DNA from: Eledone cirrhosa
Taxonomy: Eukaryota
Length of the DNA: 64,000 bases
Assembly: GCA_964016885.1 (NCBI GenBank)
Contig: OZ024743.1
Coordinates: forward strand, 314,588,001 to 314,652,000
Direction of reading: 5' to 3'
The stretch's first letter is position 1. Every line of letters begins with the position of its first letter. The notes under the pieces are model-generated. The model saw only the letters and a program-made list of their open reading frames with translations. It was not told where the DNA came from and did no database searches. The position numbers and the translations under genes are program-made. Below are positions 5,836-50,700 of the stretch, piece after piece.

Positions 5836-5839
<4 letters not shown>

Positions 5840-6340
5840 TAAACGGAATAGAAAATGCTGACAAATTGTTCACAGTGAAAAATAGTTTAATTAGGAATAA
5901 GTGAGAATTAGTAATTGTATTGTTTAGTATTCAGTTTTGGTTTTAAGTTTTACCGGTTGCGCATTTCTAATGCTTTTTTAAAATAATTTTGAAATAGAGC
6001 GTCCGTGATGTTTGCTCTCATCTGATTAGTTTTTGGGAATTCTACCTGTTTTTATATTAAAATGTGGCTCCAGCGGTATTAAAATAGGTTTTGCGCCAAT
6101 TCGTGTTGCAAAAATTCTTGTGGTCAAAACAATTTTGATTGGTCGGTAGAGGTCATGTGAATGTAAAAATTTGATTTTGCGCCAAATGTAGGTTTGTGTC
6201 GGCTGACTGAGAAATGACTCTTTCACAACAAATATGTGTGTGTGTGTGTAGTAGTAGTAAAGTGTTCGTTGTTGTGATAATGGTTAGCTGGGATGTGTGT
6301 GCGAACCGCAGCCTGTTGACAGTTCAAATGCCTATCAAGA

Positions 6341-6377
<37 letters not shown>

Positions 6378-7699
6378 CAGAGAAATTCGTGGTAGGGGGA
6401 TGGTCAGTAGGAATGTGTCTGTAAGTGAGTGGGGGATATTTTAACATGTTAAAAGATATTTTTCAGCTCTTGTCTTATACGGAGAAGTGTGTGTGTGTGT
6501 GTGTGTGTATATGTCTCTTTGTATGTTAATGTACGCGTATGTATGTGTGTGTGAGTATGTGTGTGTGGGGGGGTGGGGGTGGGGTGGACCAGTATTGTTT
6601 TCCCTGGTAAAATAGTGTACATTATTCGATATTTTCAGTAAAATCGATTCTCCCAATAGAACATCAAAAACCTTAATAATAAAAGGTGTGAAATGATATT
6701 CACTATATATATATATATATATATATATTTGTGTTGCACCATAGAACATGTGTGTTTACGTATGTCATTGTGTTTATATGTGGGTAGAGATGTGTGCTGA
6801 TGTAGGTATGGATATTGAAGTGTGTATGTTGTGGGTTCGTCTTAGGGAGAAGTGTTTAGACGGGGTCCGTATTTGTTAATTAAGTAAGATTCCTTGCTGA
6901 TGCGCTGTGTGTGTGTGGCATTATCTTTGAATGTGTAGAGGGGAAAGATTCTGAAGTTGGGATGATTTTGGGCGGCACAGGTATCAATGTGTTCACTCAG
7001 TGGTATTTTCCTGTATTCCTGTATTTTAATTTGGGATCTATGGACAGTCATGCGTTGGCGGAGGCTGATTTTGGTCTGGCCTATGTATTGTTCTCGACTA
7101 CCTGAGCAAGTTAATACATATATTAGATTTTCCGATGAACATGTGAAATTGTGTTTTACTATAAAATGTTGTCCTTCTTTGAAATATAATTCCGAACCCT
7201 CTATTAGGTTGATGCAGATGCCACAGTTGGGTCATTATTTCTTTATTGTGGGTTTCGTTGTTGTGGTTAGCAGTACTTTGGATTGTGTTAGGATGTTTTT
7301 CATTGACTTAGATTGTCATTTGCTCTTTATGATATCGTGTGTTCGTAGGATTTGGTTCATTCTATGGTCCTTTTTGAACACAGGAATGTTGTGCAGGATG
7401 GTGTCAAAGGTCTCATTGTTGAGGGGGTTGTGTGTGGAGTTGTATGGTAGAGCTTTTAGTTTCGGTTGATTTACTTTAGGGTGTCTAAGCTCCTGGGTAC
7501 TGAGTTTTAGGGCACGTTGGATTCCGTTGTCAATTAGTGATGCAGGGTAATCCCTGCCTATGAGTGTGTCCTTTAGTTCTTGTAGCCGTAAGTAGCAGGT
7601 GTTTTTATTGGAGACTATAGTACAGATTCTCTTGGCTAAGTTGTAGGGAATATTAATTTTAACGTGTCTAGGGTGGCAAAAGTTGAAAGGAAGATATTG
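5836..7699 (-). mobile_element. 5'-truncated Penelope-like retrotransposon (family B2)
   Basis: Coding remnant at 6842-7699 plus a ~1-kb 3' UTR/pseudo-LTR, flanked by (TA)n. A second copy is at 46220-47713 and a terminal fragment at 32482-32670. Confidence 0.9.
6842..7699 (-). pseudogene. PLE RT thumb, linker and GIY-YIG endonuclease, with in-frame stops
   Basis: [30 protein letters not shown]...PNCGIC...NLIYVLTCSGSREQYIGQTKISLRQRMTVHR...ESYLINKYGPRLN. Stops at 7316 and 7232-7237. Confidence 0.9.
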
Positions 7700-7743
7700 T
7701 ATATATATATATATATATATATATTACATTCTGTATATATATA

Positions 7744-7831
<88 letters not shown>

Positions 7832-7931
7832 TTACACTCTGTATAGCTCTACACATCAAAACAGAAGTGAACCTAAACATCGAGTGCTCACCCGGGTGAA
7901 CATGCAGTAACTTCAAGTTACACTCCCTAGA

Positions 7932-7990
<59 letters not shown>

Positions 7991-8283
7991 GTACATATAT
8001 ATATATATATATACATACATATATATATATATATATACATTTATATATATACACATATATATGAAGATTAGAGTTAAAACTCAATTGGAGCCCTGTAACT
8101 ATTAAGCTCCAAGTATAAAAATACTGCGCCGATTAATAATATATAGTAAGAAACACAGTAAACCGTGTGTCTAAAATTACAAGGGTTGAAAAACCACATT
8201 TGTTTGAAATATTTAACCAAGAAGCAGACAGAATGATAAAATAAAAATATATTTTTATACAAACCGCCTCAATAACCATTATA

Positions 8284-8363
8284 TCTCTCGGACAGATTAT
8301 CCCTAATCTGTTTCGCCCTGAGTGTGTTTGTAACAGATAATCCTGGGCTTCATCAGCGAGAGA
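8284..8363 (-). ncRNA. Type I hammerhead ribozyme, copy 1
   Basis: UCUCUCG CUGAUGA a GCCC-26nt-GGGC GAA ACAGAUUA-ggga-UAAUCUGU C CGAGAGA. Stem I is 7 bp, stem III is 8 bp with a GNRA loop, and the GUC cut is predicted at 8291/8290. Confidence 0.9.
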
Positions 8364-8750
8364 ATCTGATTAAATGCAACAAACACTATTTGCCAACGTT
8401 CACACAGAAAGATGAATTTGTCACCTCGTGCTCCGCTAGCCAAACGTGGTAAGCGTGTATTGAACAGAAACAACAGTCCAACACACGCAACTTAATAAGC
8501 TCAACTTGTGAGGGAGCAGAAATATATATGAAGATTAGAGTTAAAACTCAATTGGAGCCCTGTAACTATTAAGCTCCAAGTATAAAAATACTGCGCCGAT
8601 TAATAATATATAGTAAGAAACACAGTAAACCGTGTGTCTAAAATTACAAGGGTTGAAAAACCACATTTGTTTGACATATTTAACCAAGAAGCAGACAGAA
8701 TGATAAAATAAAAATATATTTTTATACAAACCGCCTCAATAACCATTATA

Positions 8751-8830
8751 TCTCTCGGACAGATTATCCCTAATCTGTTTCGCCCTGAGTGTGTTTGTAA
8801 CAGATAATCCTGGGCTTCATCAGCGAGAGA
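8751..8830 (-). ncRNA. Type I hammerhead ribozyme, copy 2
   Basis: Identical to 8284-8363 at an offset of 467. Cut predicted at 8758/8757. Confidence 0.9.
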
Positions 8831-9889
8831 ATCTGATTAAATGCAACAAACACTATTTGCCAACGTTCACACAGAAAGATGAATTTGTCACCTCGTGCTC
8901 CGCTAGCCAAACGTGGTAAGCGTGTATTAAACAGAAACAACAGTCCAACACACGCAACTTAATAAGCTCAACTTGTGAGGGAGCAGAAATATATATGAAG
9001 ATTAGAGTTACAACTCAATTGGAACCCTGTAACTATTAAGCTCCAAGTATAAAAATACTTAGCTGATTAATAATATATAGTAAGAACACGGTTTTCTGGA
9101 TGAGATCAAAAAAGTATTCTTCATTTCGACACTGAATTCTTAAATTCTTATTTGAGCAGATAATAAGTGTCTTAAAGCTTAGTATATTTCTCTAATTCAT
9201 ATACAGAAAGTAATATATTTCACTTAATAGGTCAATTCACAATTATAATAGGACAGAATACATCTCTCCGGAATATTTAATTTAATTTAAATCAATGCTT
9301 ACTAAAGTGGGTGCTACCACCTCCGACTCCATTCTGGGGGCACTGTGGGACTCAGGAGAAGCATTAGAAATAAAGCACTGATGTCAACGCTCAATGATAA
9401 GTAAGGACTTTTAAGCGAGGAATGAGAAACAGAATAAAAAATAGCAATATCTCGTAGAACTTTCAGCTTGAGTTATTATATAAATGTTTGAATAAAATGA
9501 AATATTCCAATATACTTTCAACGAAACATTTTGATGAAGGGGCGGGGGGTGAGGAAATAGCTTCTCTAAAGAGTCGCCAGTATTCTACCAAAGCTTGGAA
9601 AAACCTGGAATACGTAATAACAAAATCTGTTATGGAATGGAACAGCATCTACTCTCAATTCTAACCAATTGAGGTACAGGGTGCATAACACAGTACTACA
9701 TATGCCTGCGTATATGGCAGGGTGGCCATGGCTAGACCGACTTTGATCAAAGTGATTCCAACCTTGAACATTCAGTAAAAGTTTTCTTTCTAAAACTACC
9801 TTCAAAGGGCACTATTTTTTGTCCAACTGGGTGGCAGTAAAGCAATTAAGAGGAACTCCGCAGCCATAAAAGTTCTTCCCAGTCAATTC

Positions 9890-15116: not shown

Positions 15117-18100
15117 GGTGTCAGACAGCGAAGACGTGTCTTTTGTGAGCTCGATAAGGTAGTGAATTTCAAGATCTTTTCAATGGTTTTAGTTGCTATA
15201 TTTTTTGGAACAGGGTCGTAAAACCTGTCTTTGCCCTGTGAAGAGGAGACGCTATAATATTTGAACTTTTTGTATATATATAAAAAAATCAAAAAAGAAA
15301 AGAAACATGGCTGAGCCACGCCCAACGGTAAGTCAGCTGTCGTATGACAATGACTTGAACGGTGAGAGGAGGGATACGGCGAACGCAAATATTTATACCA
15401 CAAACACCAACACAAACAACATGAACAACGACAGCAACAACAGCAACATTTAGAAGACTAACCTAAAAAAAATAGAAATGACAACACCAAACACAGCAGT
15501 GATAGCGACAACCAAAAGACAGGCAACAGAAACAATGGCAACAAAAACACCGAAATTAACACCACCAAGAACATGAACAGCGACAGCACCAACACCAACT
15601 GCACCGAAAACAACAACAGCGGCATCAAAGATACAACCAACTGCAACAGCGACAACAGCAACAACACCAACAAGAACACCAACAACACCACGAACACCAA
15701 CAAGAACACTTTCGCTGCGGCAGCAGCCAAAAGGAGGCCATGCTTCAGCATGGGACTCAAGAAGAAAGATGAAAAGTTGGCCCAGGCCAAACAAGAGCAA
15801 ACCTAGACCAACTTAACTATCCCGGCAGAACCCATTGAAGCAGTGGAGCAGAGAATGCTGCATTCCAGATGCATTTCAGCAGAGACAAAGAGGGCGTCTT
15901 TAATTGCCCCGGCACATATCGATGCCGTGCTGAGATGCATCAGGGATGACACTGAGAACATAGGGATGGGCAGACAATACAGCACCATTTCGGTGATGTT
16001 TTAGTCAGAAGCCCTCGCTATGAAACATATGATGAACCCTTGCAAAACCAGCATGGTCATAATGTACCTCGTCCACATGGGAAAACAAACAGGCCGTGTC
16101 CGCATTCCCGGGATTCCACCAGGACTTGACATATGGTGGTTCTTGGGATGCGTGATAGTGGAGGGGACGGATACCATCCCGATAGAGGTCACAAGAACTG
16201 CCAGGGAGGATTTTTCCAGATCAGGCCCGAGGATGTAAAAAATCCCGAAACACATTCGTCTCCAGAATAGTATATATATAATGTCTGAGGGCAGAAGGCC
16301 GCATTGTTTTGTTTGCGGAGAAGCAACACATTTGCGAGCCTCTGCCCTCAACTGCTGAAAAGTGCAAGGGGTCAAAGGTCTCCACTGCTGTCGACGCCGG
16401 GCGAGGACCACCAACAACACCAGCACCAGCAACATTAGCCACCCCGAGGAAAACAAGGAAAGCTCCCCCACCCCACAAACTAAAAAAAATGCACACTTGA
16501 ACAAAAACATAAAACCCACATACAGACACAGACACACTTACATCCACAGACTCCTCATCTTCCAGTAGTGAAATTGCGGACACCACACTCTCAAACATCT
16601 TCCAAACAACACCAACACCAACACCAACACCAACACCAACACCAACACCACCATCACCAGAGTCCCAAAACAACGCAAACTAACTAAACAGCCAGGAAAA
16701 CAAATAAAACAGCACCAACGATACATACAAAACTTCGTGATTGTCAGAAGAGTCTACAAGGAAATGATGACCCCCGTAGCACAAAGTAAAGAAATTCAAA
16801 CAGAGGCGGAGATTTTTGAATCGAGCACATTTTGCGTACCAGAGGATTTGTTCCTGGTGCGAATGTCGCTCGATTCTTACAAAGGAATTCGAACCCCGAA
16901 CGTGAAACACACAGTGAGACTTTTAAAGGTGTTTCTAAAAGAACCCTCTCCCCAACTATGGAAGTCGAACGACCCGACATTCACAAGACCCAGGGAGGTG
17001 AGTAAACCTTTCCTCACTCTTTTAGCCTGCAAACATGGATATATTAAGAGTGGGCAGTTTAAATGTTCGCGGCTTGGGGTCGCCCTGGATGCCCAGCTCA
17101 ACGACCTCAGGTCTCTAGAAATGGATCTAATTGCCGTTAGCGAGACCAAGATTTCAGACACAGGCGCACTAACCCATATTTTCGACGACTATCAGATCTT
17201 TGCATCTGTTAGTTGGCCTGGGAATGGAAATGGGGTGGCAGTGCTGTTTAGGAAATGCCTGGATCTTGAGGTATGGTCGATCTTCCGGGACCCGGACAGT
17301 TAGTTGGTGATCCTGGACTTGAACAATAGTTATTGTGGTGCTTTTAGACTGGTGGCCGTCTACGTCCTTACCGGGGCTGGACGACCGGACTTCTTTAGAC
17401 GCCTGGAAGCCTTTATGGATACGTCTCGCTCTTTACTGTTAGCGGGTAGCTAGAACAGCATCTTAGACGTACGCTGTGACTGTTTTGGAGTAGCTCTTAG
17501 GAACCGGCGGGGGTTAGTGGTGCTGTTGCAAAAGCCTCGAGTACCTGATCAGCCAGTTCCAACTCTCTTGACAAGTGCCGGCTAGATTTTCCTTATGCGC
17601 AAGTGTGGACCTGGACCAACCACATAGGGTCATCTAGCTCGTATATAGACAGGAATATAGATTAGGAAAATAGATAGAAATAGTGTAGGCTGTCCCGGTT
17701 TTAAAATGATCGCCTATTCAGATCACAAGTTTGTGATACGCATATGTTAGGATCTGGTTACTGGAAGCTGAACGTATCGTTTCCGGCACATAAAGCCTAA
17801 AGGGACCGGGTGAACAATTTAATTAATAAAAAGGTGATTGTGGGCGGGGGGGGGGGTCGTCAACAACAGATGGTGGGGGCTCTCAAAAGAGAGATTACAG
17901 TAACTTCGTTAGGGTTTAGCAAAGAAATAGCGTTAGAAAAAAAATAGATGAGGGGGGGGGGGGCAGCGAGTAGCTAAGGTAGACAAGGCTATTCGTAGTG
18001 GCATTTCAACTGACATGCTAGCGTGGAGAATGGCCTTAGACCATTTCTTCAATGCAAAACACGAAGGCTGCATTGTCAGAGCTAAGGCATGTGCTCTGAG

Positions 18101-28555: not shown

Positions 28556-28603
28556 ATGTGATAGCGGCGATGAATTAGTTTTGATAACATCGACAACATC
28601 CGT

Positions 28604-30592
28604 ATGAGTGATGTAAAACTACCGGAAGAATTTACCAATGACCACACAGTAAATATCTATGGGAACACTTTAATCAGTGAACAAGAACAACAAATCCTAA
28701 AGTTACCACCAAAATTTGCCATCTACAAAAAGATTGACCCTATGGAATGCAAAACGGAGCTGGAAAAGTGTTTCACAAAAATACGTTGGAATGCAAAGGT
28801 AAACAACAACAACAATAATAATAGTAGTAATATAAACAATAACTCTGTGTATAGAAATAACAGCCATAACCATAACAATGGCAGGAAAGTGAGAAATAGT
28901 GATAATGGCAATAATACTAGCGATAGACAGAACAACAACAACCACAATAATAATAATAATAGAAACGTTAACCACAGACACAGCAACAGTGACCACAATA
29001 GTAATAACGGTAACAATACGAACAACAACAACAACAATAACCACAGTGGTAATAATGGAAATAGTACATGTAGCAACATCAACAAAAACAAGAAACATAA
29101 TAATAGTAACAACCACAATGGTAGAAATAGCAGTAACAACAACAACAATAACGGTGAAGTAAACAACAATACATCTAGCAATCATAACAATAATAATATT
29201 AATGCTAATGATAGAAACAACAACAACCACCATGATAACAATAATAGCAACACACACAACTATGACGATAGAAATAACGACAACCCCTTAGAGAAACTAT
29301 TTTTCAACCCAGCTGACAAAACATATAAGATGGGTAATATCTATCCTACGAGGTTACCCTTTAATAAAAGAGTTTGCATACCACAGCAAATAGATGACGA
29401 GACGGAGGCACAGTTCACCATAGCTAGAAATAAGATTAGACAAGTAGTAGACAGGTACACTATGAGACAGAGCAGACCAGAGGCCCAACAACTTGGGATA
29501 AAACCTGTAGAAGGCTCTATAGCCTCAAGCAGCGCACAAGGGATGGTGAGGTAGTGTGTCTACCCACAGATAAGTCTGGTAGGATGTCAATAGATAGCAT
29601 GCCGAACTACATCGAGGCAATGCAACCCCACATCACCAACACGAGCGAAGTTGCACAACTAACACACGATGGGAGAGAAAAAATCCTCAACGCTCACATG
29701 ATGATGTGGACTGACATCCTAAAGCCAAGCAGACGCACTGCCAACAACTTCCAGGCGTCTAACAATGGCATACCACCCTTGTATGGGCTCCGCAAAGACC
29801 ACAAGACAGTCGACGACCCGACAACAGGACCACCAACAAGACCCGTATGCGGAGCTAATATAGCTAGCAACTACAGGATCTCCTACTTCCTCTCAATGGT
29901 TATACGCCCCATAATCAAGATGTCCCCAGATGTATGTGAAAGTACAGAGGACCTCCTCAGCAGAATCAGTGAGTGCAACAAAAACAGGAGCCTATCCAAC
30001 TGCATAATAGGCAGCATGGATGTGGTGTCACTGTACCCATCCATTAACATTGATTTTGCTGTGAAAAGATGTGTGGAGATGATCACTGAGAGTGAGGTGG
30101 AGTTCTGCGACGTCGACACAGACGAACTGGGCCTCCTACTTAGACTTACCTACGACACTGACTACCTAGACAGCCATGATCTTAGATGTTTCTGCCCTAG
30201 TAGACCTATAAGAGGTAGACCCCCCACCATAACCTCAATGGCTAAAAAGACTCCCATAGGAAGGTGGATTGGGTGGACCAAAGCTATACGGACCCCCCAA
30301 AACACTGATCAGGTAAGAAAAATGGTCGCACATGCAATAGGGGCTAGTATCAAAACTACCCTAAAGGGCCACATATTTAAGTTCAATGAGAAAATCTACA
30401 CCCAAAATGAGGGAGCAGCCTTCGGCGTCAGCATAGCTGGTGATGTTGCCAACCTTTTCATGGTATGGTGGGAAAGGAGACTTAAAGATCTCCTTAATGA
30501 AAGCTCCATAGACCTCATCATGTACTCTCGTTATGTAGACGATATCAATATAGTTATAAGAACACCCCCACTAGAGAGCACTAACAAGTTTG
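28604..30592 (+). pseudogene. Penelope-like reverse transcriptase: frameshift near 29500, Asn-rich insert, 3'-truncated after YVDD
   Basis: ILKLPPKFA, PTDKSGR, PPLYGLRKDHK, TRPVCGA, SMDVVSLYPSI, FKFNEKIYTQNEGAAFGVSIAGDVANLFM and SRYVDDI. Confidence 0.92.
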
Positions 30593-30626
30593 ATATATAT
30601 ATATTGTTATACTTGGGGAGGGTCAT

Positions 30627-30787
30627 ATTTGTGTAATATTGCCAGAATTAATAACAGAACACACTCACTGTCTGGTTGGTTTTCGCTTCTCGCTTCTGTG
30701 TCTTTTATATCGGTAATCTAACTTACTCGGTCCTCAATGTTTCGACACACGATTTCATATAAAACCTCGCAAAACTAATTCATCGCC
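30627..30787 (-). repeat. Probable pseudo-LTR fragment; its end is an 18-bp inverted copy of 28566-28583
   Basis: GGCGATGAATTAGTTTTG (28566-28583) versus CAAAACTAATTCATCGCC (30770-30787). Confidence 0.65.
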
Positions 30788-36812: not shown

Positions 36813-37709
36813 CTAGCATTAAAGCCCGGCGTTGCTCGGGGTCATTAAGTTACCAATGTTAGGTTGCAACACCCATTTTATGGCAGCACTTTTTTGTCTG
36901 CCAGGCACTGGGTGAATGAATTTCAGACCTGGAAGTATGAGCTGCGCCAGCAGTGACAATTGTAGTTTCGCCTATGGATATTATCTCTGTGCAAAAAAGT
37001 GTTGAAATTTATTGTTTCACAGTACTTGCGCAAAACGCGCGTAGACGATGCCAGCCGAACAACAGAGCTGCGATGGAGTTGTTCTGCGTGGTTGTCTGTG
37101 TGTTTTCTAAATTTAAGACAGTAGGGAGGGTTGCGATATAAGGGAGAGTTAGCTGTTGTTTCTAGCAGGTGTAGTGACCTCATAGAGGATATGTGTTTTC
37201 AAAATTTAAGACAGTAGGGAGTGGTGTGATATGGGGGAGAGTTAGCTGCTGTTTCTAGCAGGTTTAGTGACCTCATAGAAGATATGTTTTCTAAATTTAA
37301 GACAGTAGGGAGTGGTGTGATATGGGGGAGAGTTAGCTGCTGTTTCTAGCAGGTTTAGTAACCTCAAAGAGGATATGTGTTTTCTAAATTTAAGACAGTA
37401 GGGAGTGGTGAGAACGGACAGTATCACCATCAAGCTTGGAAAGAGAAAGTAGCAGAAAGTATGAAGTTGTATAGATTTTGAATGGTAGTAGAAAGAGTTC
37501 AGCAGTTTAAATGAGAGAGAAAAATCGTAAATTATTGAGTTTTATCAATTTTTTGCGTAATTGAGGGTGAAATTGAAAGAATTATCTGCGTCAAGACGCA
37601 ATCAAAACTATTTCGAATACTGAATTGTAAATTTCAATTGAAGAAATTCTATATCGTAGATTTCTATAACGAAGGAGCATGACCACACACTGAGCTTTAT
37701 AGATTATGA
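36813..37709 (-). mobile_element. Non-autonomous Helitron with an internal ~92-bp tandem repeat (~3.4 copies, 37099-37410)
   Basis: The minus strand starts TC (37709) and ends CTAG (36813). A GC hairpin CCCGAGCAACGCCGGG lies 8 nt before CTAG. Inserted between A and T with no TSD. Confidence 0.85.
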
Positions 37710-38119
37710 TATATATATATATGGAATCCATAACCTAGGTTATAGATTCCATACACTGGTGGTTTTTCCCTCTTTTATTGATGTCACACTATCTCTCTCT
37801 AGTGTGTTACCTTTTCAACATATTGTATTTTAAAGTGCTCAGGATACCTTCTCCTTTGAGCACATTATTTACAGGGAACGGCGTGAGTCTATGGCTCCGT
37901 TAATGTATCGTAATATTTCGCTCCGTATAACAGTCTTTCGTCTCTCTCTCTGTTTGTTGGGCACACTTCTCTGAGTGGTTTTTGGCTGCCCTTTCTAGCA
38001 GCTCGTCCGTCAGAGGTCACTGGTTCAATGCCCTTAAAGACGCTGTAACTTCTCTCCACCACGTGTAGTTGGACGGTCGCTTTAAAATTCTCTTAGTGTT
38101 GTCTGAAATGTATAGCCTT

Positions 38120-38560
38120 ACACACGCTGATGAACCTGCGCAGTATCAGTAGAGGGTCGGACGCCATGTTCTCCAGCATAGTTACGTCCCTTTACGATCT
38201 GAGTTCAAATCCCGCCGAGGTTGACTTTGCCTATCATCCTTACGGGGTCGATAAAATAAAGTACCAGTAATGCACTGGGTAATTGCTGGCCTTGTGCCTA
38301 AAGTACAAACAGTTATGGGCGGTGTATTGGCAGTATCAGTAGAGGGTCGGACGCCATGCTTTCCAGCATAGTTACGTCCCTTTACGATCAGAGTTCAAAT
38401 CCCGCCGAGGTTGAATTTGCCTTTCATCCTTACGTGGTCGATAAAATAAAGCTAGTAATGCACTGGGTAATTGCTGGCCTTGTGCCTAAAGTAGAAACAG
38501 TTATTTCATTTTGTCACCCACTTACTGGCGAAACAGATTACTTTGGATTTGTACGTGTGT
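38120..38560 (+). ncRNA. Type I hammerhead split in stem II by a 366-bp SINE insertion
   Basis: ACACACG CTGATGA acc...[SINE x2]...tggc GAA ACAGATT-actttg-GATTTGT A CGTGTGT. Confidence 0.75.
38140..38505 (+). mobile_element. Head-to-tail SINE dimer (38140-38316, 38317-38505)
   Basis: Two highly similar family copies. Confidence 0.9.
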
Positions 38561-38682
38561 TATATAGTTATAGGTTATAGATTCCATACACTGGTGGGTT
38601 TTCCCCGTTTTATTGATGGCGCACTGTATCTCTCTCTAGTGTGTTACCTTTTCAACATATTGTATTTTATATATATATATAC

Positions 38683-43484: not shown

Positions 43485-44710
43485 TCGTGTTCTTTTCCTT
43501 TGCGGCCTTCAGGAGCTTCTCCATCCGGTATGCCTCGAAGTCTCTCTTCAGTTGTTGACATATCACTCTGCTGAGAAGGGAATACTCGAGGTGATCTTCA
43601 GGTGTACTCTTCATATTTTTCCTCTTCTCAAGCAACTTCATAGTTTGCTCCGTGTCTCTTCCCTTCCGATCCCTCGGGCACACACCCTTCGCCTTCCTCA
43701 AGTACTCCTTCAGTTTCCTTATCAGTGAGTCGTAGTCAGCGTCTATGCCGTCTCCTTGTCGCCAGTTTTTCCTGCAAGATGGCTTCCTGAAGCTGCACCT
43801 CGTTGAAGACCCGGACGCGTTCTCCCTTCGACACCAAATGCAGAGCCTTCTTCTCCCTCGTCCGTTCAATGACGACCTTCGCCTTCACCAGACGATAATC
43901 ACTGGAAGTGTTGAATGGCGTTATGACGGAGACGTCCTGGAGTATGCGTCGCTTGTAGTCCAAGATGTAGTCGATCTCGTTTCGGTGCTCAGAATTTGGC
44001 GATGCCCAGGTCCATCTCTTCTCATCCTTCTTCTTCCTGAATAGGCTGTTTTCGATGTAGAGCCGTCTCGCCTCCGCCATGGAGACCAGACATTCTCCTC
44101 TCATCTTCCGACATACACTTCCCCTTGCTGTCCTTGTCCGACCTTTGTGGGTGCGTAGGTCTGGAGGATCTTGAGGGTGGCCTTCCCTGAGAGGTTCACG
44201 TTCAGTACACCAATCCGTGACGATATGAACTGGCAAGGAGCGACCTTCGAAGCCCATTCCTTGCTTACGAAAAACCCTATACCTCCGAGTGATCTGGGAT
44301 CCTCTTCTTTCCCGAGTCTCAAGGCGCATACATCTTGCCATCGCGAACTCGGCTCCTTCTTCTGGAGGGTCTCGCACAGCTCTAACACGTCGCACCTGAT
44401 CTTCTTCTCCTCCATTAGGTGCTTTAGTCCTTGCCCCCCTGCCAAAGACCTGCAGTTGTAGGTGCATATGGCAAGGTTAGTCCTGTTGCTTGGCGCCCTT
44501 CGGGAACCTGTGATTCGTCGCTCGTGTTGCACTCCGCCGTCGTGGAGTGGCCTGATTGACACGCAAGGTTCTGAGGCCCTTTTCTTCGTACTGTTTTAAC
44601 CATAAGATGACGCCATCTCACTAGCTGGGCGGGCAGGCCGGTACCTCTTCAGTTTAGCTAGCTTTTGAACTCTGGAAGATGATGAATCATCTCTAGGACC
44701 AACAGTCTGA
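43485..44710 (-). mobile_element. RTE LINE, inverted 5' segment (5' UTR and APE endonuclease)
   Basis: LAICTYNCRSL, DVLELCET, GGIGF, ILQTYAPT, RWTWASPN..RNEIDYIL and SDYRLV. Confidence 0.9.
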
Positions 44711-47751: not shown

Positions 47752-50700
47752 CTACTGGTAACATGTAACCCAGTGCTACCTGTCTCTTGGTCGGGTCGTC
47801 GGCGAATAAACCGGCAACCCCACCAAGCCTGCTTGGTGAGGAGGGTGATATTTGGACACCCTGCGGGATGGAATAGAAGACCCGGCAAAAGGCAGAGGAA
47901 TTCAGCAGAGTCAACGGCCATCCAAATAGTACTTTTTTTTACCTGTGAGTGAAGGACCCCCAGTTGTTGTCACAACACCTTTCCAGGAGAGGGAAACTCT
48001 GAAAAAAAAACCTGCGGCTTCGGAAGCATCCGATGATGCTGACCACATCTCCTTTTCGGGTAGTGTTTTCGATGCTCAGAGAGTGGGATTGGTCGCGTGC
48101 AAGGCCTTTCCCCACTTAAATAATCTTCAAAGCACAGCCATCGATTGTTCAGGATCTGTTACAGGTGCGTGTGGCTCACAGTAGCCTAAAAGTGCACCAA
48201 ACTCTATGATGACAGATGAGCATAACCTTAAGGTCAATGGTAGTAAGGGCTCTGGAACTTATTTTGAAGGGGTCTGGCCTGGCAGGTGTCCCTTGTCACC
48301 GCAGCGCGGGCCCGGTCGTCATCCTTCAACTGCAAAGAGGTTCAAATCTCTGAATATTGGATGCTGGAATGTAACTACTTTACTTGATTCCCAGACAAGT
48401 GACACTCGCCCTGAAATAATATCTGCTTTGGTGTCGAGGGAAGTCGATCGCTATAGCATGGACATCGTTGCTCTTTCAGAAGCGAGATTGGCAGGTGAGA
48501 GTCTATTCACAGAGCAGAAGGGAGGATATACCTTCTATTGGAGTGGTAGAGCAGAGGCTTGTAAGAGAAAAGCAGGGGTCTCATTTGCTGTCAGGAATGG
48601 AATCGTCTCAAATCTGGAAAATCTTCCTTGTGGATTCAATGATCGGATAATGTCAATGAAAATCCCGCTGATTCAAAACCGCTTTGTGACTCTGGTCAGT
48701 GAGTACGCTCCTACTATGTGTGCTAGTGATGAGGAAAATCTAAGTTTTTACATGTCTTTGAGAGAGGTCATCCATGGTATACCTTATGCAGACAAGATTG
48801 TCATCTTTGCTGATTTTAATGCACGTGTTGGTAATGACTAGGAAGCTTGGAGTGTGATGGGCAAGCTTGGAGTAAGTAAGTTCAATAACAAAGGCCTACT
48901 TCTGTTGCAGATGTGCACTGAGATGGATCTTGTTGTTGGGAACAGAAATACAAATATAAGACAACTTGGATGTATCCAGGTTCCAAGAAGTAGCACCTTA
49001 TTGACTTTGTTTTAACGAGGAAACGTGATATCAAGGATATCACATTGGTTCGTGTATTGCGAGGTGCGGAATGTTGGACTGATCATCGTCTGGTGCGCGC
49101 CAAATTTCAATTTGTTGTGAAGCCCAAAGTAAGGGGGAAGAAGGTTGCACTTCCAAAACAACTAAACTAGAGGTGAGTTGTCGAGGTCCCTTGAGTCCAT
49201 GGAAAGTGAAAACACCTGGGTATCTTGAAGAAAACCATCTATGATGTTAGTGCTGGAGATTTGGGTCATAACAATAGAAAGAATAAAGACTGGTTCGATG
49301 AAAATGATGCAGTTACTCAAACATTGCTTGAAGACAAACAAAAAGTGCTGACAATTTGTGTGTGAGACGCGTTCTGACAGGAGTGACCGGACCCTAAGGC
49401 AGATCAAGGCACGTGTGCAACATCGATTGAGAGCCATGTAGGATACTTGGTGCAACCAAAAGGCTGATGAAATCCAGAAGGCCTCAGACAGACATGATAC
49501 AAAGCTCCTATATAGCCTTCTCGGGGAGGTGTATGGTCCGACCGGGTCACAGATATCACCACTTCGCTCCAGGGATGGCAAGGAATTGCTCAGAGATCCG
49601 AAGGAAATTCTGATCAGGTGGCATGACCACTTTGATGAGCTTCTCAACAGACCATCAGAAATTGATGATGAGTTCATCCGGTCGATTCTATCCAGACCTA
49701 CAAAGCTGGAAATGGCTGATCCACCTTTATTTGATGAGGTAGCGAAGGTCAATGCCAAATTGAACAGCGGCAAGTAACCTGGAATGGATGGACTGAGTGC
49801 CGAGATTTTCAAGTGTGCTGGTGATAACTTCTTAAACCGCCTCACTGATCTCTTTGTGAATGTTTGGAATGAAGAAGATGTGCCACAGGACTGGAAAGAT
49901 GCATTGATGGTGGTACTTTACAAAGGAAAGGGAGCCAAATATGACTGTGGCAACTACAGAGGTATCTCGCTGCTTTCTCTGGCTGGGAAGATCTTGTGCA
50001 GGATTTTGTTGGACAGATTGATACAACACATTGCTGTTGAGGTACTTCCTGAGTCCCAATGTGGCTTTAGGAATGCCAGAGGCACTGTTGACATGATATT
50101 CTCGGCCAAACAACTTCAAGAGAAATGCATTGAGCAGCGCATGGACTTATACCAAGTTTTTGTCGATCTAACCAAGGCATTTGACACCGTTAATCGGAAA
50201 GCTTTGTGGGTTATTTTGGAGTGATTGGGCTGTCCTGAAGAAGTTGTAAACATTCTGATACTTTTCCACGATGACATAAAGGCATGGGTGAATGCTGGAG
50301 GTAAACTGTCTGAGCCAATCTCGGTTGAAAATGGTGTCAAGCAGGGTGATATACCTCCACCAACTTTGTTTGCCTTGTATTTCGCAATGGTGTTCTTCAT
50401 GGCCTTCGGGGATTGTCAACACGGTATCTATCTCAGATATCGCACTTCCGGCAAGCTGTTTAACCTTAGGCGGCTCACTGCCAACAATAAGGTACTGAGT
50501 ACCTTGAACAGAGAATTTTTATATGCAGATGATTGTGATCTCAATGCACACTCCCAGAGTGACATGCAACACCTTATGGATTAATTTTCCAATGCGTCCA
50601 ATTCTTTGGGACTGACAATCTGTCTGAAGAAGACTGTCATCATGAACCAACCTGCTCCAGATACAGTTATCAATGAACCCTCCATATACGTATACGGTCA

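Follow-up and report, generated by a model that had tools for sequence, protein, structure and literature searches.

Organization of the array at the Eledone cirrhosa locus

The window (the whole 64,000-nt stretch of Eledone cirrhosa DNA that was analysed) contains, next to a (TA)n microsatellite, a head-to-tail array of a 467-nt unit read on the minus strand. Its parts are listed below, with unit positions numbered from the first base after the predicted ribozyme cut.

8055..9086 (-): whole insertion, 2.2 head-to-tail units, 5′-truncated at 9086 and with its 3′ end at 8055 (TRF, blastn map)
8291..8757 (-): cut-to-cut monomer of 467 nt, predicted self-cleavage product (release presumed) and candidate circle
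8989..9086 (-): 5′-most partial unit (positions 139-236), 5 differences in 98 nt, with short-read contig support
7934..8054 (no strand): (TA)n microsatellite at the 3′ junction, the presumed target
9087..9094 (+): inverted unit snippet of 8 nt at the 5′ junction, read from the flanks, which could be due to chance

TRF reported a period of 467 nt, 2.2 copies and 98% matches for 8055-9086. The original prediction had described such an array at 8055..9090; the array and its period are real, and its end lies at 9086, the last four bases belonging to the inverted snippet, which recurs at the 5′ junction of another copy (L006). The predicted near-identity of the units holds for the two full ones, which differ at 2 of 467 sites (blastn map), while the 5′-most partial unit (8989-9086) differs from the other two copies at 5 of 98 nt, a divergence that had been overlooked. 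With a GC content of ~35% and no stop-to-stop frame longer than 78 a.a within the array, the unit is short, GC-poor and devoid of a protein ORF, as retrozymes are. Short-read contigs covering 9030-9500 were identical to the assembly in two of four runs and differed at two positions in a third, these runs possibly deriving from the assembly's own sample. The 5′ junction is present in such contigs, and none spans the array.

The hammerhead motif

Each full unit carries, on the minus strand, the elements of a type I hammerhead ribozyme: a 7-bp stem I, CUGAUGA, GAAA, an 8-bp stem III capped by a GGGA loop, and GUC.

8751..8830 (-): upstream type I hammerhead, cut 8758/8757; based on fold, landmarks and covariation with a sister family
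8824-8830 with 8751-8757 (-): stem I of the upstream hammerhead; core at 8817-8823, extra A at 8816
8812-8815 with 8782-8785 (-): stem II of the upstream hammerhead; loop II at 8786-8811, stem III at 8759-8778
8284..8363 (-): downstream type I hammerhead, identical in sequence to the upstream one, cut 8291/8290

The two complete motifs lie 467 nt apart, with 8758 and 8291 as the last bases before the cut, and the cuts (8758/8757 and 8291/8290) and 467-nt monomer (8757-8291) had been correctly predicted. A complete ribozyme per unit, as also claimed, is found in both full units; the partial 0.2 unit (8989-9086) has none. The earlier description was accurate for stems I and III, the core strands and GUC, and missed the extra A that follows CUGAUGA, the short stem II (4 bp) and the long loop II (26 nt). 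An extra nucleotide in the core is reportedly tolerated in a viroid hammerhead.

The type I shape is the minimum of the 91-nt fold (z -2.5, ensemble frequency 0.11), and a hammerhead descriptor matched exactly twice in the 64,000-nt window versus zero times in 30 shuffles. An Rfam search, proposed as a check alongside the original prediction, came back empty: the hammerhead models gave no match in the window at the gathering score, and none in 8000-9200 at E ≤ 10.

Copy number, sister families and conservation of the ribozyme

The family to which the array belongs (family A) is dispersed, with at least 337 exact matches to a 31-nt core in the 3.0-Gb genome (control, 0). More distant sisters comprise a C group (70–85% similarity) and family B; family A and the C group together account for 594 exact matches. 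A first look for the 467-nt unit returned 1,392 candidates, of which 40 were scored. We read 115 loci, comprising the 40 best and 75 drawn from pattern lists in order of position along C1-C2; a few of these 75 were picked for lacking the pre-cut bases, and loci that overlapped or were segmental duplicates were left out. Among the full units, 40 distinct ones group into four subfamilies 6–14% apart plus two singletons, and the insertions appear young (~2% from the column majority). Arrays reach 6–7 ORF-less units (L181, L061).

Several further observations were made on the relatives and flanks. L115, L117, L119 and L121 are segmental duplicates of a single insertion, all lying in a stretch of ~235 kb on C1. 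The window itself holds a family B copy (37722-38670, plus strand; unit ~570 nt) with two 3′ end sites into (TA)n, its loop II split by a ~370-nt insertion of two SINE-like copies. Eight C-group copies (L305, L315, L323, L327, L328, L329, L332, and L335) have the same SINE-like sequence, in antisense, directly 3′ of site 1 (see below), and a subfamily may carry the sequence as cargo or be its preferred target; the SINE label rests on box-like motifs. Unrelated hammerhead families occur in the flanks of L061 (1810-2717), L102, L106, L107, L131, L136, L158 and L171, one of them in tandem with a spacing of 425–482 nt, and another tandem repeat lies between the L061 array and its inverted arm (6246-7849).

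Recurrent variants among family A units affect 1 of 47 core and stem positions versus 93 of 420 positions elsewhere (p = 0.0004). Between families A and B, stems I and III show three compensatory pairs, each one inherited change, and core position 7 and the NUH triplet vary within the rules of a working hammerhead. Judged from these alignments, the ribozyme core is selectively conserved and covaries with the sister family, and selection on the core and stems is the best argument for cleavage.

These data bear on whether the locus is a chance local duplication or an assembly artefact, i.e., inert DNA with a hammerhead-like look. The resemblance of the middle unit to a local duplication, the empty Rfam search and the want of a spanning short-read contig are all compatible with that view, which is nonetheless highly improbable in light of hundreds of dispersed copies with fixed ends, the covariation and selective conservation of the ribozyme, and the recovery of the 5′ junction in short-read contigs. 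For the family as a whole it is already refuted; multi-copy dispersal is borne out by the 337 or more exact cores, and the single-copy and artefact alternatives that the original prediction had named were tested and not found.

Search for an ORF or a parent element

No ORF-linked copy was found among the 115 family A loci, 66 C-group loci or 30 family B loci, a result that describes this sample of loci rather than the whole genome. Copies always attached to a PLE ORF, the case that the original prediction had set against itself, were thus looked for and not found (0/115). Upstream of the ribozyme, each of the 115 loci continues as unit sequence until it breaks off at a variable point. Fragments of PLEs often lie near family A copies, none joining at a fixed position, and the sampled loci showed no RT plus GIY-YIG ORF at a fixed position as an autonomous pseudo-LTR element would have. 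Profile scans of sampled loci for an autonomous parent returned just family B and family fragments, and a relaxed hammerhead descriptor yielded only families A and B among the first 100 of 498 places. A related terminal repeat was absent from 30 GIY-YIG loci (26 frames in four clusters, 22 in one).

Alternatively, an autonomous PLE could have ORF-bearing copies that escaped sampling, the arrays being its truncated pseudo-LTR tandems. The array ends look exactly like PLE ends, retrozymes have been proposed to derive from pLTRs (main text of 10.64898/2026.07.22.740005), and the DNA search scored 40 of 1,392 candidates while PLE diversity was sampled in part. We consider this origin unlikely, as the unit breaks off variably at 115 of 115 loci and never steps at a fixed point into an ORF, ORF-less arrays reach 6–7 units (L181, L061), and profile searches of the sampled PLE loci turned up no related terminal repeat.

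A PLE does lie beside the array: a 5′-truncated, frameshifted copy (5838-7699, minus strand) with an RT thumb, a GIY-YIG domain (PF01541) and a ~1-kb 3′ repeat. Its family is very abundant (15,344 candidates, several copies having 784-aa open frames), and an intact copy has a C-X4-C-X2-C linker, by which, following the main text of PMC8557442, its sequence is of the Neptune or Nematis type. No canonical hammerhead was found in its termini. This neighbour was rejected as the parent, no similarity to the unit occurring in 42 loci of its family (window excluded). (TA)n tracts separate it from the array; its own end also runs into (TA)n, and this shared target is all that marks it as a possible helper.

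Retrozyme 5′ ends are fused head-to-head to truncated PLE ORFs at L168 (~2662) and L077 (~2420), and in the same orientation at L137 (~2056); possibly, these are mixed-template insertions. As proof of a helper the head-to-head fusions were set aside, amounting to 2 of 63 5′ flanks (a count that stands without a computed null) plus L137 and involving different PLE families, and they are kept as a lead. Elsewhere in the window, a 101-nt repeat (7833-7933) between two (TA)n tracts also occurs beside L096 and the L115-L122 copies and has very high short-read depth; a 93-nt tandem repeat (3.4 copies, 92% matches) lies at 37099-37410; and open frames of 243–398 aa outside microsatellites are found at 28574-30636 (+), 43736-44476 (-), 49162-49917 (-) and 16572-17303 (+).

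Insertion anatomy

Of the 113 free 3′ ends in the 75 position-ordered loci, 108 coincide with one of two internal sites, both UA runs following hairpins, and 104 run into (TA)n.

8136..8145, also 8603-8612 and 9070-9079 (-): 3′-end site 1 (unit 146-155, UA run 3′ of a hairpin), 49 of 113 arms
8055..8062, also 8522-8529 and 8989-8996 (-): 3′-end site 2 (unit 229-236, UA run), 59 of 113 arms, presumed RT start

Forty-nine ends lie at ~155 (site 1) and 59 at ~236 (site 2), the latter count including the equivalent site of a deleted subfamily. Site 1 is conserved in the sister families, and site 2 forms the 3′ end of the array at 8055, fused to the target microsatellite. The 5′ ends are spread, with an excess at both UA sites (18 and 14 observed versus 7.3 and 5.1 expected) and, in the 75-locus sample, no pile-up at unit position 1. 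An inverted piece is present in 37 of 75 loci, and in 35 both outer ends lie at the two UA sites. Insertion ends lie inside (TA)n, which would hide the target-site duplications that, where present, exceed 4 bp in non-LTR retrozymes.

Truncation, partial tandems, inverted arms and a (TA)n bias are described as marks of PLEs in the main text of PMC8557442, and the anole PLE protein extends both target strands from two internal RNA sites according to that of PMC11167929. Family A shows this whole set: 5′ truncation, partial tandems, an inverted arm, two 3′ sites and a microsatellite bias. Because the end marks match those described for PLEs, we infer a PLE enzyme. The PLE-type mobilisation of the original prediction therefore fits what was found, a dispersed ORF-less tandem family bearing PLE-type insertion marks, with the enzyme itself deduced from these marks.

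Strict UA annealing as the sole cause of the 3′ ends is weakened by a third UA run (39-44) that is hardly used, and by family B and one C family (at site 2), whose 3′ ends are alike although the UA run there is short or absent. The sister families end at the homologous sites although their UA runs are weaker, so the site is probably set by structure, with target pairing only helping.

Predicted control of the ribozyme

Partition functions predict that the ~30 nt upstream of stem I pair with loop II.

8847..8855, second copy 8380-8388 (-): segment predicted to pair with loop II (partition functions), kept in sister families

Of 27 circular folds, 25 give stem II a probability below 0.2, as do 22 of 27 linear ones, in a survey from which 13 of 40 units were dropped for mutated motifs and whose model leaves pseudoknots outside. 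Trimming the outer segment restored stem II in just 9 of 27 units, the window's own not among them. A similar hairpin is predicted for family B from a different sequence, where it shows no covariation (0/21 pairs within that family), and the outer pairing segments are conserved in the C group. The folding model thus predicts a ribozyme that is mostly off, blocked by a competing upstream hairpin; alternatively, the active fold could itself contain this outer pairing as a pseudoknot. The stable stem III had been expected to let the unit cleave as a monomer. An 8-bp stem of the GNRA type is indeed present, and efficient monomer cleavage is doubtful, as the upstream hairpin is predicted to compete with the ribozyme and fast cleavage is not assured.

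The circular 467-nt monomer has a predicted MFE of -123.4 kcal/mol (z -4.1 versus 60 shuffles) with 63% of bases paired. It would thus be a highly self-paired circle, as expected of a retrozyme, but one in which the ribozyme is not predicted to be free, as it is in most animal retrozyme circles, some mussel ones excepted (main text of PMC7229834).

Circular or linear template

The exact pre-cut 8-mer is kept by 334 of 360 post-cut 21-mers, and the loci examined without it are point mutants, except for one inversion joint. A hard stop at the cut site, as from linear cleaved monomers, was not seen in the copies; this seamless read-through indicates that cleaved linear monomers are not the main template.

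We therefore weighed a circle against uncleaved linear read-through RNA, with the same non-autonomous PLE-moved repeat, a mostly inactive ribozyme, and longer arrays arising from multi-unit sources or later duplication. As reported in the main text of PMC11167929, unprocessed RNA is the main substrate of the anole PLE and ribozyme mutants inserted normally; cleavage is not needed there, and read-through of the cut site thus does not require a circle. Similarly, the main text of 10.64898/2026.07.22.740005 reports that eight of nine Xenopus retrozyme dimers failed to cleave in vitro. The predicted competing hairpin would be transcribed ahead of the ribozyme's 3′ half, 82 of 91 junction-bearing arms cross one cut site (9 of 91 cross two or more) and most are under ~720 nt, and both the window array and L061 look expanded after insertion, all of which accords with linear RNA. 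Set against this, the catalytic core is conserved across families 70–85% alike, although cleavage would only destroy a linear template. In addition, among the 33 arms that contain more than one cut site (both samples), 24 cannot derive from crossover of a one-site copy and would demand two uncleaved ribozymes on one RNA, 5′ ends do not pile up at position 1, and laps share private variants. On balance, a linear template seems rather unlikely, and the sequence evidence favours circular RNA as the template of family A.

The variants themselves are as follows. Of 106 pairs compared across the cut (15 ambiguous ones set aside), 103 have the same subfamily on both sides, where shuffles reach no more than 50; for inverted arms the figure is 34 of 35 (6 set aside), where shuffles reach no more than 24. 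This concordance may come from subfamilies active at different times. Two locus-private variants are common to both laps (34 unshared) and eight, in seven loci, to both arms (95 unshared), with <0.1 expected in each case; gene conversion may account for such sharing. Arm ends are ~3 times as frequent beyond one unit length (55 in 8,830 nt versus 31 in 14,507 nt; 0.62 per 100 nt above 440 nt and 0.21 below it), as though the enzyme ran into its own product once a lap was complete. This step is confounded with position, as 5′ ends cluster at the two UA sites: in the 213-173 stretch, although it lies past one lap, only 1 of 32 site-2 arms ended.

History of the extra unit

The original prediction took the 2.2 units for a single pass of reverse transcription around a circle, a reading that the variants do not bear out. 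The middle unit shares private variants at 164 and 201 with the 3′ copy, where the 5′-most partial unit has the family state, and agrees with the 5′ copy downstream of these sites. Differences are concentrated in the overlap (5/98 versus 2/369 elsewhere in the array; Fisher p = 0.005, or p = 0.017 when clustered changes are counted once). One pass around one circle predicts no such pattern, leaving a single-pass origin unsupported. The extra unit looks as if it was gained afterwards, when a 1.2-unit insertion underwent unequal crossover within its 139-236 overlap, or else through a template switch close to the 5′ end. The L061 array is alike, with six identical units and one older unit. Two intact ribozymes occur at 4 of 75 sampled loci and in the array studied here, which could consequently serve as a source locus for new copies.

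Proposed mechanism

We read the array as a copy of a non-LTR retrozyme that likely spreads through a borrowed PLE RT and GIY-YIG nickase, probably from circular RNA (probability roughly 0.6, judged from sequence). A locus with two intact ribozymes would be transcribed on the minus strand, and the two hammerheads are predicted to release the 467-nt monomer, slowly or with protein aid because the upstream hairpin competes. By precedent, a host ligase would then close the monomer into a circle. A PLE protein would nick (TA)n and RT would start at ~155 or ~236, the end pattern being plain in the copies and the enzyme presumed; starts often made on both target strands would give the inverted arms. 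Synthesis, as the copies record it, crosses the cut site seamlessly and stops variably, leaving 0.5–1.5 and sometimes >2 units. At the present locus, a 1.2-unit insertion likely gained one unit later by local duplication.

A fuller account, which we offer as tentative, would treat family A as a record of rolling-circle retrotransposition: a PLE dimer would make two cDNAs on both (TA)n strands from UA landing sites of a ribozyme-made circle, stall after about one lap without RNase H, and occasionally pair the circle with PLE mRNA (L077, L168). The conserved upstream hairpin would act as an off-switch for the ribozyme, so that the circle survives.

Comparison with known systems

Explanations of animal retrozyme mobility are still hypothetical: circular templates and helper PLEs are proposed and not directly shown in the main texts of PMC7229834 and 10.64898/2026.07.22.740005. 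Family A offers hundreds of young insertions with ends that locate the RT start sites at single-base resolution, which makes a direct test of the mechanism possible with the published in vitro PLE assay. We found no description of family A or of retrozyme end anatomy in the literature covered (partial coverage, main texts without supplements). The comparisons below refer to those same texts.

Like Schistosoma Sm-alpha and newt satellite 2 (PMC6155905), family A combines a repeated non-coding unit with a type I hammerhead; unlike them, it has a long loop II, an extra nucleotide after the first core strand and no Rfam match.

With endonuclease-bearing PLEs (Neptune, Poseidon and Naiad, PMC8557442; PAc, PMC11167929), family A shares 5′ truncation, partial tandems, an inverted 5′ arm, a microsatellite bias, two internal RT start sites and an intact ribozyme upstream of the 3′ end. 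Unlike these elements, it has no RT or GIY-YIG ORF. Its start sites lie ~80 nt apart versus 30–40 in PLEs and are UA runs matching the target, whereas PAc starts at a non-homologous site (PMC11167929), and its helix III is full, compared to the usually minimal one of PLE hammerheads (PMC6155905).

The closest likeness is to metazoan non-LTR retrozymes (coral, mussel and axolotl, PMC7229834; vertebrates, 10.64898/2026.07.22.740005): short, GC-poor, ORF-less tandem units with a type I hammerhead each, dispersed, coexisting with PLEs and predicted to form a self-paired circle. At 467 nt, the unit slightly exceeds the 150–450 bp of PMC7229834 and lies within the 51–972 bp of 10.64898/2026.07.22.740005. 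Unlike those retrozymes, family A mostly forms 0.5–1.5-unit insertions, and its fixed internal 3′ ends, (TA)n targeting and inverted arms are without counterpart in the descriptions given in these two sources. A ribozyme blocked in the circle, as predicted here, is reported among retrozymes for some mussel variants and plant ones. With the sequence features of a retrozyme present and no autonomous pseudo-LTR copy among the sampled loci, family A is likely a new non-LTR retrozyme family moved by PLE machinery; retrozymes as a class are already known, and what distinguishes family A is an unusually clear record of the mechanism.
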